Source: a virus
Taxonomy: Duplodnaviria > Heunggongvirae > Uroviricota > Caudoviricetes
Reading direction: 5' to 3' (one strand)
Length of the DNA stretch: 64,000 nucleotides
IMG/VR virus record: IMGVR_UViG_2671181136_000006
The position numbers were made by a program, and so were the translations under genes. Positions within the stretch are counted from its first letter, which is position 1. Each line of letters opens with the position of its first letter. The notes under the pieces were generated by a model. That model worked only from the letters and a program-made list of their open reading frames with translations, was not told the DNA's origin and ran no database searches. This document shows positions 30,102 through 34,009 of the stretch, piece by piece.

Positions 30102-30842
30102 TTATGGCAGTAATTCTTTACCGCTTTCCATTTTGGTGATAGAGACAGTAGGATCATCGTTAATGCATGATTCTGTGCCTAATGCTGCTAACCCTTTACG
30201 CATAACCGTGCCCGCAACATACGCCTCAATCTCCGCCTTTCCAGATGAGACAATTTCATCCATTTGTTCCTGCATTAATTCGGTAGCAAAGCACAGATTT
30301 TCAGGAAGGTTAGCTACAGCAGATGCTAGTTTTCTATATAGTTCTTCAAGGTCACGTTTTCCAGCTCTTCCTTTTTTTACAAGTTCACCTAGCTCTGAAA
30401 CTTGCTGATTAAGTCGATCAATCTCACTATTCGTAGCGGCCTTTATTTGATCGTTGAATTTTTGCCGAATACTTTTTTGCTCGGCAATATCATGAACTCT
30501 AATTGAGTCTCCAATGGTTTTATATGAAATAGTGCATGGCACACCTTCGCCCACTCCAAAACTGCTAACCATAGCAGCCCATTGTGCCTGGCTAAGTCTA
30601 ATTTCAACTAAAGGCCGTCTATTGCAACTTCTTTGTGGGCGGGTTCGTTCATTGTCTAAGGACAGTTCCGCCTCGTAAACGCCTATTTCAATATAGTCTC
30701 TATGTTCCAGTTCTGAATCAAATAGGCGAATGCCAGTTGTGCTAACACGGCTTGTTTTCACAAGACCGAACGCTGGATGTGTTTGAATTTTTTCCCCATG
30801 TTTATTAAGGGTCGTTTTTGGTTCTTCAATTTTTCTTTTCAT
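30102..30842 (-). CDS. hypothetical protein
   Basis: 246-aa ORF. Confidence 0.4.
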   Translation of the reverse strand: MKRKIEEPKTTLNKHGEKIQTHPAFGLVKTSRVSTTGIRLFDSELEHRDYIEIGVYEAELSLDNERTRPQRSCNRRPLVEIRLSQAQWAAMVSSFGVGEGVPCTISYKTIGDSIRVHDIAEQKSIRQKFNDQIKAATNSEIDRLNQQVSELGELVKKGRAGKRDLEELYRKLASAVANLPENLCFATELMQEQMDEIVSSGKAEIEAYVAGTVMRKGLAALGTESCINDDPTVSITKMESGKELLP

Positions 30843-30888
30843 CTTATTAACCTCTATGCTTCATGCGTAAAGCTAAATGACAATTTTT

Positions 30889-31713
30889 TTAATATCCGGC
30901 GTATTCGTATTCTTCATTTAGACCGTATTCTTGTGGAGTGATACCAGGACAACATAACTCAAAGGCGAACTTGCGCCATTTGATTTTTTCTTCTGACGAT
31001 TGTTTGTTATTCGCCGGTGCAATGTAGTCATATTCCCATTTGCCGTTGCGAAGTAAAATGAATCCGCAGTTATTGCCGAAGTCTTCGTCTGCATAACGTA
31101 TTACAAACTCAAGGTGCGGGAACTTTCTAGCCATCGCTTGATAAATTGGTTTTGGCATAGACCAGGCTGTTTCAAAGCGAATCACCAACTCACCACCAGT
31201 TGCGGCATGTCTTGCAAGACGTTTTTTATAGATTCGTTTTGCATATGCTCGAACGTGTGTATGGCGGAAATTATGGCCGTACTTAATACGTGTAGGGATA
31301 CGTTTTACGGGCATTTCGATGTTGTAGGCATTCCATTTTGTTCCCCAATTAGCTCGCGACCAGTCAAACCATGAGTAATAGCCATAGCGACGATAATTCT
31401 CAAGCCGCATAAGAGCCTGCTCTTTGATTTTGCGAATTTCCTTGCGTGTCATTCCTGATTCACGCATAGCTAATTCGACCTGTTCTGGAGTCTTTAATTC
31501 ACCGAACATGTGGTCGTAAACTGTTTCGCCCGCCATTGCAGAGGCCATGCGCCTGATATGATTGTTTTCTTCCATTTCTATACTTTTCGGACGTCTGCAA
31601 ATGGTATTAAAGTCAATTAGACCTTTTTTGTTAGTTATGGCACGTATGAAATCTAAGCGTTGTTTATTTGTACCACCTATGACTCGGATTTCGTTTGTAA
31701 TGTGGTTGGGCAT
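30889..31713 (-). CDS. hypothetical protein
   Basis: 274 aa; W/Y-rich central motif WFDWSRANWGTKWNAY, family not recognised. Confidence 0.4.
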   Translation of the reverse strand: MPNHITNEIRVIGGTNKQRLDFIRAITNKKGLIDFNTICRRPKSIEMEENNHIRRMASAMAGETVYDHMFGELKTPEQVELAMRESGMTRKEIRKIKEQALMRLENYRRYGYYSWFDWSRANWGTKWNAYNIEMPVKRIPTRIKYGHNFRHTHVRAYAKRIYKKRLARHAATGGELVIRFETAWSMPKPIYQAMARKFPHLEFVIRYADEDFGNNCGFILLRNGKWEYDYIAPANNKQSSEEKIKWRKFAFELCCPGITPQEYGLNEEYEYAGY

Positions 31714-31764
31714 AATTAACTTAACCTTTTAACAAATTGTTTTCTTGTGTGTGATAATAACGAG

Positions 31765-31792
31765 AATAAAACGGCGTCCAACTGGACGCCTG
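31765..31792 (-). terminator. rho-independent terminator
   Basis: GGCGTCCAACTGGACGCC hairpin plus T-run on minus strand. Confidence 0.5.
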
Positions 31793-31808: not shown

Positions 31809-32639
31809 TTATTTCACTGTAATGAAAGGAGTGTTAGCCCCTTGAGTCATGTACTGCGGTAACTGGCCATTCCATTTATTGATGGCTTCCAGCTCCATAA
31901 CGTTCGGGTTTTGACGCAGAGCTTCACCGCGCAGACGAATGGCGTCGGCTTCTGCTTGCGCACGAGCACGGATAGCATCAGCTTCACCATTAGCCTGTTC
32001 ACGTAGCATATTTGCCTCAGCTTTACGCTGTTCAACTTCCTGCTGACGTTGCAGAGTACGCTGGTTAGCCGTTACTTTGGCGTTGATAGATTCAATGACG
32101 GTTTTTGGGTAATCAGGCTTTCCAACCCATGACAGGCTCAGTACCTCAATACCAACCGGAGACATCTCTTTCTGAATATCTTTCAGTGCGTTGTCCAGCA
32201 ATTGCGCCTTACCACCGTCGATAAATGAGTCAGTGGTCATACGGCTGGCCAAACGGTTTAGAGAGTCGGCAATTTTCTGACGCAGATCTGATTCGGTGAT
32301 ATCGTCTACGCCTTTGCGATAGGTCTGGAACACCGTCGTTACCTTGTCACGATTAACCAGATACGCAACGCCAATTTTGTGACCAATAGCAGTACCGTCA
32401 CTCATCTGGAATGTGAACGGCTCGTCGTAGGTCTTCATTTGTTTGAAGGTCGGGAATACGTAAAGTTCGGTGTTAAGACCTGTCCATTGGCGACCAACGC
32501 CAACCACTTCACCGATCCCTTTGTCTTCACCTAGTTTGTTTACTTTGATGCCAACGTATCCAGGCTCCACGCGATCACAGCCAGTAAGACCCATTGTGCA
32601 AATAGCCGCCAGAGCAACTGCAAGTAAACCTTTCTTCAT
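31809..32639 (-). CDS. SPFH/band-7 domain lipoprotein
   Basis: lipoprotein signal (LTGC), SPFH-like core, C-terminal coiled-coil with EA-repeat typical of HflK/C-like proteins. Confidence 0.7.
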   Translation of the reverse strand: MKKGLLAVALAAICTMGLTGCDRVEPGYVGIKVNKLGEDKGIGEVVGVGRQWTGLNTELYVFPTFKQMKTYDEPFTFQMSDGTAIGHKIGVAYLVNRDKVTTVFQTYRKGVDDITESDLRQKIADSLNRLASRMTTDSFIDGGKAQLLDNALKDIQKEMSPVGIEVLSLSWVGKPDYPKTVIESINAKVTANQRTLQRQQEVEQRKAEANMLREQANGEADAIRARAQAEADAIRLRGEALRQNPNVMELEAINKWNGQLPQYMTQGANTPFITVK

Positions 32640-32642
32640 TAC

Positions 32643-32843
32643 TTATTTCCCCTTTGCTTTGATTAATGAGTTGATAAACTTACGACCAGCAATAAGACCG
32701 ATTACAGGAGCACCAAAACCAACGATAACTCCAAACATGACGGCTAAATCACTCTTGGTAGAAATCAGCGACGGAACCAGTAAACCGTAGATGAGAGCCA
32801 CTGAAACGCCTGTGGCTACTGCCAATAGATAGATTTTGATCAT
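32643..32843 (-). CDS. small two-TM membrane protein
   Basis: 66 aa, two hydrophobic helices; immediately upstream of SPFH gene. Confidence 0.4.
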   Translation of the reverse strand: MIKIYLLAVATGVSVALIYGLLVPSLISTKSDLAVMFGVIVGFGAPVIGLIAGRKFINSLIKAKGK

Positions 32844-32904
32844 GTGTTTTCCTATGTGGTTGTTATGCGAAAATAATAAGTAAGTACTTATATATTTTCA
32901 AGAG

Positions 32905-32932
32905 ATAAAAAAGGCGTCCTGTGGACGCCTTG
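32905..32932 (-). terminator. rho-independent terminator
   Basis: GGCGTCCTGTGGACGCC hairpin with T-run on minus strand. Confidence 0.5.
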
Positions 32933-32935
32933 TGT

Positions 32936-34009
32936 TTACTCTTCTACTGACTCGGTGGGGTTGTCTTTTGCTCTTCGGTCGTCGATTGCCTGCAAAGCCG
33001 CAATGATTTCAGCCAGTGGCTTCTCCCGATACATCTCGACGATCTGCGATTTGGTGTATTTCTTGTCACCAATTTCAACTCGCCCGCTGGCGTTCTTTGG
33101 CAGGTATCCTTCTTCCAGCATGTACTCGACGAGCGATTCGATAACGTCGAGGCCACGAGTAGGATCGAAGTAGAATTTCCAGGTGCATTTGCCATACGGT
33201 GGTGCAACTTTGTTTTTGATGCATTCTGCGCCTACGTCCTGGCCGATCTTCTCTTTACCATCCTTCATCACCGATGCACCAAGACGGATACGTACAGAAG
33301 CGTAGAACTTCGGTGAATCTCCACCTGGCGACGTAGTAGGGTCGCCAAACATTACACCGATTTTTGTGCGAACCTGATTCAAGAAGATGATGCAGGCGTT
33401 GTATTTGCGTGCCCACAAAGCCAGAGTAGGGAAGTTCGCACTTGTCGCACGAGCCAGTGCCGTATTGTCGTTCATGTTCAGCTGATCTTTGTCTTTGGCA
33501 GTGCCTTCAGCCATCTTTTCGAACTTCTCGGCTTTGGAGTTCGGAACCATAGACGCAAGTGAGTCAGCCACGATACAGATAGGTGCTGATTCAGGAATAA
33601 GCTCTTCATCACGTACCAATTTAAGAATTGTGCCGATCAACTCTACAGAGTCTTCGAAGGTATCAGGCTGCTTGTATACCCACTGACCGTCATCCTCATC
33701 TGCGTTCAGGCCATTGGCTACAGCCAGGCCAACGTCAAAACTGTTTTCATGATCGAGGAATACCGCCAGACCATCTTGTTTTTGAGCGGAGATCATCGCT
33801 GCTGTTGCAAGGAACGTTTTCCCTGCACTTGGAGGACCGAATACTTCGACGATACGACCACATGGGAAGCCGCCATCGTAACGACCAGAAATAGCTTTGT
33901 TTAACGGTGGAAAGCCTGTATCAATCCAATGAGTTACTTTCTGAATTTCGTCGTTGCTACCGATTTTCTTTTTCAGAGCAAGTGCCAGTGCGGATTTTCC
34001 TTTTGCCAT
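32936..34009 (-). CDS. recA: RecA-family recombinase
   Basis: GRIVEVFGPPSAGKT Walker A, NQVRTKIGVMFGDPTTSPGG L2-like region near-identical in pattern to RecA. Confidence 0.85.
   Translation of the reverse strand: MAKGKSALALALKKKIGSNDEIQKVTHWIDTGFPPLNKAISGRYDGGFPCGRIVEVFGPPSAGKTFLATAAMISAQKQDGLAVFLDHENSFDVGLAVANGLNADEDDGQWVYKQPDTFEDSVELIGTILKLVRDEELIPESAPICIVADSLASMVPNSKAEKFEKMAEGTAKDKDQLNMNDNTALARATSANFPTLALWARKYNACIIFLNQVRTKIGVMFGDPTTSPGGDSPKFYASVRIRLGASVMKDGKEKIGQDVGAECIKNKVAPPYGKCTWKFYFDPTRGLDVIESLVEYMLEEGYLPKNASGRVEIGDKKYTKSQIVEMYREKPLAEIIAALQAIDDRRAKDNPTESVEE

Follow-up and report, generated by a model that had tools for sequence, protein, structure and literature searches.

A gene pair encoding an SPFH lipoprotein and a small membrane protein

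We analysed a pair of genes at positions 31809-32843 of a 64,000-nucleotide stretch of DNA, hereafter the window, from a Caudoviricetes virus that is an SSU5-like phage-plasmid (IMG/VR record IMGVR_UViG_2671181136_000006). A first-pass annotation of the sequence had described the pair as an SPFH lipoprotein with a small partner carrying two transmembrane (TM) segments. Both open reading frames (ORFs) are indeed encoded there, on the minus strand, with the expected Band_7 domain, lipobox and two TM segments. The partner comes first and is separated from the SPFH gene, which is in the same frame, by TAA GTA alone. The PHROG profiles place the SPFH protein in phrog_200, annotated as 'lipoprotein' (E=3e-108), and the partner in phrog_1130, annotated as 'membrane protein' (E=9e-26). 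The features of the pair are:

32643..32843, minus strand: partner of 66 residues, a two-TM hairpin (phrog_1130), from the ORF, its hydrophobicity and the PHROG profile
31809..32639, minus strand: SPFH/Band_7 lipoprotein of 276 residues (phrog_200), from the ORF, Pfam, PHROG, an AlphaFold2 model and Foldseek
32577..32639, minus strand: lipoprotein signal peptide (residues 1-20) and lipobox Cys21 (codon 32579..32577), from the sequence
32013..32573, minus strand: SPFH (Band_7) domain, residues 23-209, from Pfam PF01145 and the strands and helices of the AlphaFold2 model
31911..32105, minus strand: single helix of 65 residues (residues 179-243), from the AlphaFold2 model and Foldseek

The SPFH protein: lipid anchor and fold

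The 276-residue protein matched the Band_7 profile (PF01145) over residues 23-209 with a score far above the Pfam cut-off (106.2 bits against 23.6, E=2.6e-30). Its N-terminus (MKKGLLAVALAAICTMGLTG-C-D-R) consists of a signal peptide, a lipobox (L-T-G-C) and then Asp22-Arg23, in agreement with the pattern [LVI][ASTVI][GAS]C followed by Asp at position +2. The N-terminal anchor that characterises the SPFH superfamily is thus a predicted lipobox cleaved between LTG and C, with no TM helix or hairpin. The lipobox Cys was invariant among nine distant phage homologues, and C-D-R was present in 95 of the 97 close homologues with a readable motif. In lipoproteins of Escherichia coli, Asp at position +2 leads to retention in the inner membrane. 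Since Asp follows Cys21, the predicted site of lipidation, we predict that the protein is retained at the inner membrane, on its periplasmic face.

The AlphaFold2 model (a monomer, mean predicted local distance difference test score, pLDDT, 76.7) is built of beta strands and helices from residue 21 to residue 176, where pLDDT lies mostly between 75 and 92. The 65-residue helix, a short helix and a disordered C-terminus follow, the last 25 residues being of low confidence. The long helix of the model is equivalent to the coiled-coil wall helix of SPFH cages. The motif ELEAINKWNGxLP...PF is conserved after it, at the C-terminus, and K-W-x-G-x-L-P is invariant in the homologues of distant phages, which would fit a role in closing an oligomer.

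Foldseek aligned the model over nearly its full length to HflK (7vhq_E, E=4.8e-14), and likewise to prohibitin, HflC, erlin, stomatin, flotillin, QmcA and the vault shoulder. There were 66 PDB matches at E<=1e-3, with HflK, prohibitin, HflC, erlin and stomatin at the top. Its viral structural neighbours were all unnamed 'Band 7' proteins. HflK was the sole PDB match by sequence (E=0.007). The protein had initially been called flotillin/HflC-like, a label that is imprecise in its flotillin part: the structures most similar to the model (HflK/HflC, prohibitin, erlin) are cage formers on the non-cytoplasmic side, and membership of the flotillins was rejected, because the Flot profile (PF15975) scored below threshold (19.9 bits against a cut-off of 27) and flotillin structures ranked 30th or lower.

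Some homologues are labelled 'serine protease', 'SPFH serine protease', 'putative transposase' or 'transposase fusion protein' in the databases (e.g., those of phiP27, Stx2_95, KpCHEMY26, TL, phiM6 and DLP_6). These protease and transposase names look like propagated errors, because Band_7 is the sole domain detectable in the proteins.

The hairpin partner

The partner (MIKIYLLAVATGVSVALIYGLLVPSLISTKSDLAVMFGVIVGFGAPVIGLIAGRKFINSLIKAKGK) has hydrophobic segments at residues 1-29 and 31-54 (TM1 at about 3-26, TM2 at about 33-53) and a basic C-terminal tail (RKFINSLIKAKGK). The turn VPSLISTKSD (residues 23-32) is conserved, and the positions P24, S28, G38 and P46 are invariant in the alignment of enterobacterial partners. 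A turn of the form P-x-L-(I/V)-S-x-x-(D/S) between TM1 and TM2 is common to the partners encoded by phages of Escherichia, Shigella, Erwinia, Vibrio, Pseudomonas, Burkholderia and Desulfovibrio.

The protein lacked any match in Pfam, even at E<=10. We rejected an NfeD-type identity, given a length of 66 residues, the lack of a match to NfeD (PF01957) or an OB-fold at that threshold, and flanking genes of the RecA-like and DUF1281_C types. A holin identity, which would be compatible with the size, the number of TM segments and the tail, was rejected because the protein had no Pfam holin match at E=10, is encoded outside a lysis cassette and is conserved mainly in the predicted periplasmic turn. 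In one related record (L042, IMG/VR UViG_2791354933_000005) the partner ORF has a premature stop at codon 10 in an otherwise intact module; this could be a pseudogene or a sequencing error.

Distribution, linkage and natural fusions

The first-pass annotation had presented the pair as an SPFH module of mobile elements. Its presence on such an element is clear, but it is not peculiar to them, since 413 of 50,697 phage records contain a homologue of the SPFH protein and many of these phages are strictly virulent. Among the phages with a homologue are N4-like, rV5-like, FelixO1-like, LUZ24-like, T7-like and phiCbK phages, where polymerase, exonuclease or RNA polymerase genes adjoin. In an exhaustive search of 1.84 billion cluster representatives, SPFH clusters numbered 195 at E<=1e-30 and 902 at E<=1e-10. 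When a set of 5.8 billion proteins was also searched with a profile, largely the same close homologues came back, with little gain in diversity.

The complete pair is found in phages of very different types. It corresponds to gp11/gp12 in the early operon of the P2-like phage P88, to L05 and an unannotated 62-residue ORF adjoining xis/int in the Shiga toxin (Stx) phage phiP27, and to gp30/gp31 of the N4-like phage Moo19, whose record notes similarity to N4 gp19/gp20; the two Moo19 proteins align with the window pair. It is also present in a P1-like phage, in the rV5-like phage 4MG and Erwinia phage pEa_SNUABM_55 (with one small gene between the two), in Vibrio phage CKB-S1, Pseudomonas phage U2, Burkholderia phage PR1 and the T7-like Desulfovibrio phage ProddE. 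The phiP27 ORF (L001:3304-3492, minus strand), missing from the deposited annotation, has two TM segments, abuts the SPFH gene and is a clear homologue of the partner. We therefore regard the pair as a conserved phage module rather than a peculiarity of mobile elements.

In 79 of the 80 close viral loci, a two-TM ORF lies directly upstream of the SPFH gene, on the same strand and abutting it. With a hidden Markov model (HMM) built from 12 stand-alone partners, a partner in this position and orientation was recognised at 78 of 80 distant loci or, counting each distinct SPFH sequence once, for 47 of 49. The module is thus almost obligate. The 'superinfection exclusion protein' annotated beside the SPFH gene of phage PhiSH19 was considered as a possible partner and discarded, being soluble, acidic and unrelated to it. 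An unannotated two-TM ORF with a basic loop abuts the SPFH gene of this phage (L176:1432-1650, minus strand) and encodes a protein different from the partner.

The two proteins are in some cases fused. We surveyed the 150 best representatives of the SPFH family clustered at 50% identity, of which 15 have an N-terminal partner domain, followed by a hydrophobic segment or signal peptide, the lipobox Cys and the SPFH domain. The fusions were matched with HMM E-values from 1e-13 to 1e-3, and a control with reversed sequences gave no matches. We regard these natural fusions as Rosetta-stone evidence that the partner and the SPFH protein probably work together in one membrane. Their order fits a predicted topology in which both ends of the partner are cytoplasmic (N-in/C-in) and the SPFH domain is periplasmic, in the same membrane. 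Together with the near-constant presence of a partner predicted to be an inner-membrane hairpin, the fusions argue independently for a probable location of the SPFH protein at the inner membrane. One apparent fusion in the reverse order, SPFH-partner (P0259), seems to stem from a frameshift, or from read-through, at the C-terminus of the SPFH protein; being probably a frameshift, it was counted only as a variant of gene order. Another sequence, P0304, is a copy with a frameshift.

Both genes are under purifying selection

Over 27 distinct haplotypes within the SSU5-like clade, the mean rates of non-synonymous (dN) and synonymous (dS) substitution were 0.02 and 0.74 for the SPFH gene (dN/dS ~0.03), and 0.16 and 1.0 for the partner gene (dN/dS ~0.16). 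Both genes are functional and under purifying selection. The divergence of the partner is mainly in TM2 and the tail, whereas TM1 and the turn are nearly fixed. Partner alleles have been reshuffled relative to SPFH alleles, e.g., in one related record (L054) the SPFH protein is 100% identical to that of the window and the partner only 71%.

Promoter, operator-like palindrome and terminators

The two genes had been described as a unit with its own terminator, and this description can be extended: there are hairpins on both sides and a promoter-like site that belongs to the unit itself. The signals are:

32911..32931, minus strand: hairpin terminator after the recA-like gene (AAGGCGTCC-ACA-GGACGCCTT, then a T-run), the upstream boundary of the unit
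32873..32901, minus strand: sigma-70-like promoter TTGAAA-17 nt-TATTAT, with 10 of 12 consensus matches, a consensus-level prediction
32876..32895, no strand: operator-like palindrome of 20 bp (plus strand ATAAGTAAGTACTTATATAT, core TAAGTACTTA), in the promoter spacer and overlapping the -10
31773..31790, minus strand: hairpin terminator of the unit (GGCGTCC-AGTT-GGACGCC, then GTTTTATTCT)
4829, 8880, 11093, 20645, 25329, 28836, 32876, 36396, 44639, 49439, 56395 (window positions): palindrome sites, 20 bp each

The two flanking hairpins are alike (GGCGTCC-N3/4-GGACGCC and a T-run). The upstream one is conserved over 24 distinct upstream sequences, with changes that preserve G-C or G-U pairs, and one flanking hairpin shows a compensatory change. 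The downstream one is conserved in 22 distinct downstream sequences, and its pattern has no other match in the window. Among alleles with a coding dS above 1, i.e., with saturated synonymous sites, there is hardly any variation in the promoter hexamers, the spacer and the two terminators.

The palindrome recurs along the window: 11 sites have at most four mismatches to ATAGGTAAGTACTTACCTAT, against 0.05 in shuffled sequences, and the extended 20-bp form is ATAGGTAAGTAyTTACCTAT. All 11 are intergenic, most of them within about 200 nt upstream of a minus-strand ORF, and they typically overlap a -10-like TAT(C/T)AT; two of the sites are the promoters of the ribonucleotide reductase (RNR) and single-stranded DNA-binding protein (SSB) genes. 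Because its promoter carries this palindrome, the SPFH unit appears to be part of a dispersed-operator regulon of the replication arm. The scattered C1 operators of P1 are comparable to these dispersed palindromes, which are predicted to serve an early/replication regulon of the phage-plasmid.

Just beyond the terminator of the unit (31720-31770, minus strand) is an element like AAGAAAACAATTTGTT with ATTATC before it. It is kept at equivalent positions in the related records L010-L054 whichever gene comes next, and may serve the following transcription unit as promoter or operator.

Genomic context

The phage-plasmid label given to the sequence is borne out by its relatives. Plasmids of ~108-110 kb from E. 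coli and Shigella match the region at 99-100% identity. The SSU5-like phages CMS-2020a, PhiR41_1 and Cyrano are also close to it, and SSU5 proper is 80% identical. Genes for a UvsX/RecA-like recombinase, a 5'-3' exonuclease and a gp32-like SSB were identified in the neighbourhood (Pfam, PHROG), which marks the region as the replication arm of an SSU5-like phage-plasmid. Of 5426 complete E. coli genomes, 373 (~7%) carried the unit or a relative, at 195 places on plasmids and 204 on chromosomes.

The unit lies between recA and a block of uncharacterised genes, as originally reported. Upstream is the RecA/UvsX-like gene of the window (32936-34009, minus strand), which encodes an intein-free protein of 357 residues. 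The allele of Cyrano (L003:4215-6554) encodes 779 residues, with an insertion of 422 residues exactly after the Walker-A motif GPPSAGK and flanks that are 98% identical; the difference is an intein presence/absence polymorphism. Directly downstream are two genes (30102-31713, minus strand) that are covered in only one of 16 related phage records and appear to be a variable insert. They encode a protein of 274 residues with a DUF1281_C/Api92-like ferredoxin-like domain and a coiled-coil-like protein of 246 residues.

A proposed lytic-phase scaffold of the inner membrane

Our preferred interpretation, to which we give a probability of roughly 45%, is that the pair forms a periplasm-facing SPFH scaffold of the inner membrane, with a hairpin subunit, that is made in the lytic phase and conditions the inner membrane of the infected cell. 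The 276-residue protein would be exported, lipid-modified at Cys21 and held on the periplasmic face of the inner membrane, where, in the manner of HflK/C, prohibitin and erlin, it would oligomerise via the long helix and the conserved C-terminus into a ring or cage fencing off a patch of membrane. The 66-residue protein would form an N-in/C-in hairpin in the same membrane, and its periplasmic turn (P-x-L-I/V-S-x-x-D/S) would contact the SPFH subunit, making it an integral-membrane subunit or a client of the cage. The unit would be transcribed from its own promoter; because this promoter is overlapped by the palindrome of the replication/nucleotide-metabolism arm, we infer that the unit is silent in the resting lysogen and switched on at an early stage of the lytic cycle. 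Early lytic expression would match the place of the pair in the early/replication regions of virulent phages. What the conditioning achieves is speculative: it might block the entry of superinfecting DNA, or preserve membrane integrity and the timing of lysis.

Published RNA-seq data on lysogens of Cyrano bear on this scheme. The homologous pair CYRAN_56/57 (L003:3087-4121) is near zero in lysogens grown in lysogeny broth (LB; log2 2.32/2.32 and 4.3/3.0; PMC9928086 S1 Table) and is absent from the 13 morons of this phage (PMC9928086 Table 1). A constitutive role in the lysogen is weakened by this silence in LB, by the absence from the morons and by the replication-arm palindrome at the promoter, and the presence of the pair in virulent phages argues against it as well. 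Exclusion during lytic growth would be compatible with both the silence in LB and the presence in virulent phages. The pair is probably not a lysogenic-conversion trait.

Several observations weigh against the lytic-phase scaffold. We found no experiment on any member of the family in the literature, and the function of the pair is thus a guess. The SPFH protein, the partner and the two downstream genes matched no defence model of PADLOC-DB 2.0 at E<=0.1. Phages of more remote lineages, namely Pseudomonas phage TL, Erwinia phage phiEa104, phiCbK and PhiSH19, have another small protein upstream of the SPFH gene, or none that is recognisable. The residue at +3 modulates the sorting set by the residue at +2, and an Arg after Asp+2 may weaken avoidance of the Lol system. 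Outside the temperate enterobacterial clade, the +2 residue itself is variable (S, T, E, G, Y), and an outer-membrane location is therefore possible in some lineages. The terminators that bracket the unit are the classic layout of a moron. Finally, in macrophages at 6 h, CYRAN_56/57 rose about 5-20-fold (log2 7.6/7.7 and 7.25/7.4), while RecA (4.06) and the downstream CYRAN_58 (~4) stayed at background, and the SSB gene, which has the same operator-like palindrome, rose only about 2-fold (PMC9928086). The rise of the pair without RecA or the downstream gene confirms that the unit is transcribed independently of its flanks, and it hints at condition-specific expression of the pair in the lysogen.

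We also considered a viral membrane organiser, i.e., a lipid-anchored periplasmic SPFH cage built by the phage, nucleated by the hairpin or enclosing it, that diverse lytic and temperate phages would use to seal the infected cell against further DNA entry or to capture a machine of the host inner membrane, e.g., FtsH. This reading is tentative and we would not bet on it. Either of the roles suggested in the first-pass annotation, superinfection exclusion or protease regulation, may apply. On function, we rank conditioning of the inner membrane first, followed by mimicry of FtsH/HflKC, lysogenic conversion that depends on conditions, a holin-related device and an outer-membrane receptor blocker.

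Alternative explanations

In the first alternative, the phage cage would replace or compete with host HflK/C around FtsH and alter the turnover of CII/CIII-like regulators, membrane proteins or LpxC, thereby biasing the lysis-lysogeny decision in temperate elements and stabilising phage membrane proteins in lytic ones. HflK/HflC of E. coli (PDB 7vhq, 7wi3, 9cz2) are the best match of the SPFH protein by sequence and by structure, and the best NCBIfam matches are hflC and hflK. What the systems have in common is the SPFH domain, a single long wall helix, a conserved cap segment at the C-terminus and a predicted topology with periplasmic SPFH domains on the inner membrane. The pairs of phiP27 and P88 are in early operons near int/xis or cox, the site of modulators of lysis and lysogeny, and several authors have informally speculated on a link between HflC and lysogeny (PMC4936722, PMC10269572). 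Yet the window protein is far below the equivalog thresholds of the NCBIfam models (30.2 bits against 134.4 for TIGR01932, 18.7 against 159.4 for TIGR01933). HflK and HflC are a heteropair with N-terminal TM helices, whereas the window has one SPFH gene with a lipid anchor, and the hfl locus has no counterpart of the 66-residue hairpin. The module is also common in obligately virulent phages, which take no lysogeny decision. We consider this explanation unlikely.

The second alternative is a moron with a promoter of its own that is active in the lysogen during host-associated stress; the pair would confer tolerance to envelope stress or expose a lipoprotein, at the surface or on outer-membrane vesicles (OMVs), that is sensed by TLR2. 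The conserved promoter and flanking terminators, the presence of the module in 7% of complete E. coli genomes and the rise of CYRAN_56/57 in macrophages (up to log2 ~7.3-7.7) with the flanking genes at background would all be expected of such a gene. There is also a possible precedent in the HflK/C-like protein PM0222 of a Pasteurella multocida prophage, a reported virulence factor and TLR1/2 agonist released in OMVs (PMC9872710), which may belong to the family. On the other side are the silence of the pair in LB lysogens and the conservation of the module in virulent phages, which cannot convert a lysogen. The capsid gene and several more genes of Cyrano were also up in macrophages (PMC9928086), and the signal may therefore be one of partial derepression. 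A moron is accordingly a rather improbable explanation.

Still less probable is a device for the timing of lysis, in which the hairpin would be holin- or antiholin-like and the SPFH cage would corral it, or the true holin, delaying permeabilisation and enlarging the burst. The partner has the size, topology and charged C-terminus of a class II holin, and SPFH cages are known to surround membrane proteins; two such structures, HflK/C-FtsH and QmcA-YbbJ, were among the Foldseek matches. Phage N4 shows a long, lysis-inhibited infection. However, the pair lies outside the lysis cassette, and Cyrano has a separate one with holin, endolysin and Rz/Rz1 (PMC9928086). Unlike in holins, moreover, the conserved part of the partner, for which Pfam gave no holin match, is the turn and not the TM helices. 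Lastly, an outer-membrane lipoprotein that blocks a phage receptor like T5 Llp or phi80 Cor, with the small protein merely accessory, is very improbable: the SPFH protein is a phage lipoprotein and many homologues in virulent phages lack Asp at +2, but Asp+2 is conserved in the window clade, the protein is located at the inner membrane by its tight linkage, and in-frame fusion, to a hairpin of that membrane, and a 276-residue cage-type SPFH fold is unlike the small receptor-blocking lipoproteins.

Relation to known systems

The lytic-phase scaffold that we favour has several partial counterparts. The operons of SPFH and NfeD proteins (QmcA-YbbJ of E. coli, PDB 8z5g; YqiJ-YqiK; the archaeal stomatin pair PH1511/PH1510) follow the same logic, with an SPFH scaffold and an adjacent small membrane protein that are occasionally fused, and QmcA ranked 36th in Foldseek. 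They differ in the partner, which in the window has neither an NfeD/OB-fold nor a Pfam family. QmcA faces the cytoplasm, whereas the SPFH protein of the window is predicted to be exported. The cages of prohibitin and erlin (PDB 8rrh, 9o9z, 9vvg, 9vvj) are structurally similar over the full length (E ~1e-12 to 1e-13, TM-score 0.5-0.6) and also face the non-cytoplasmic side, but they are eukaryotic, TM-anchored and only 15-19% identical. The small inner-membrane exclusion proteins of phages that are made early, T4 Imm and Sp, P22 SieA and HK97 gp15, would be functional analogues of the pair; we detected no relationship to them in sequence or domains, and none has an SPFH scaffold.

The window pair is of the same family as N4 gp19-gp20 and, more generally, belongs to PHROG families 1130 and 200, which have no assigned function in the database. 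The window copy is an ordinary member of this widespread phage gene pair, already annotated in databases; it differs from N4 gp19-gp20 in being on a temperate phage-plasmid, behind a predicted promoter and operator of its own. SPFH ORFs have been listed for T4-like and Vi01-like phages, and the reason for an SPFH domain in a phage genome has been called unclear (PMC13239085). The remark that this class is poorly understood thus agrees with the literature, where we found no functional study of phage SPFH proteins or of N4 gp19/gp20, only remarks in genome annotations. Neither the pairing rule nor the conserved turn of the partner is mentioned in the papers that we found, and the same holds for the natural fusions and the operator-controlled promoter.

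Implications for SPFH proteins and phage-plasmids

SPFH proteins (HflK/C, prohibitins, stomatins, flotillins, erlins) form membrane cages. The pair described here adds an SPFH scaffold with a lipoprotein anchor and a hairpin partner that is not of the NfeD type. What was vaguely an SPFH gene on a plasmid becomes a defined two-subunit module that is open to genetic manipulation, with a candidate contact motif, natural fusions, a predicted topology and expression programme, and model phages of the N4-like, P2-like, P1-like and Stx types. If exclusion or rewiring of FtsH proved true, the finding would bear on competition between phage-plasmids, on the choice of phages for therapy cocktails and on how SPFH cages select their clients. 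If the pair were a viral membrane organiser, this would be the first function assigned to any viral SPFH protein, with a type of partner distinct from NfeD.

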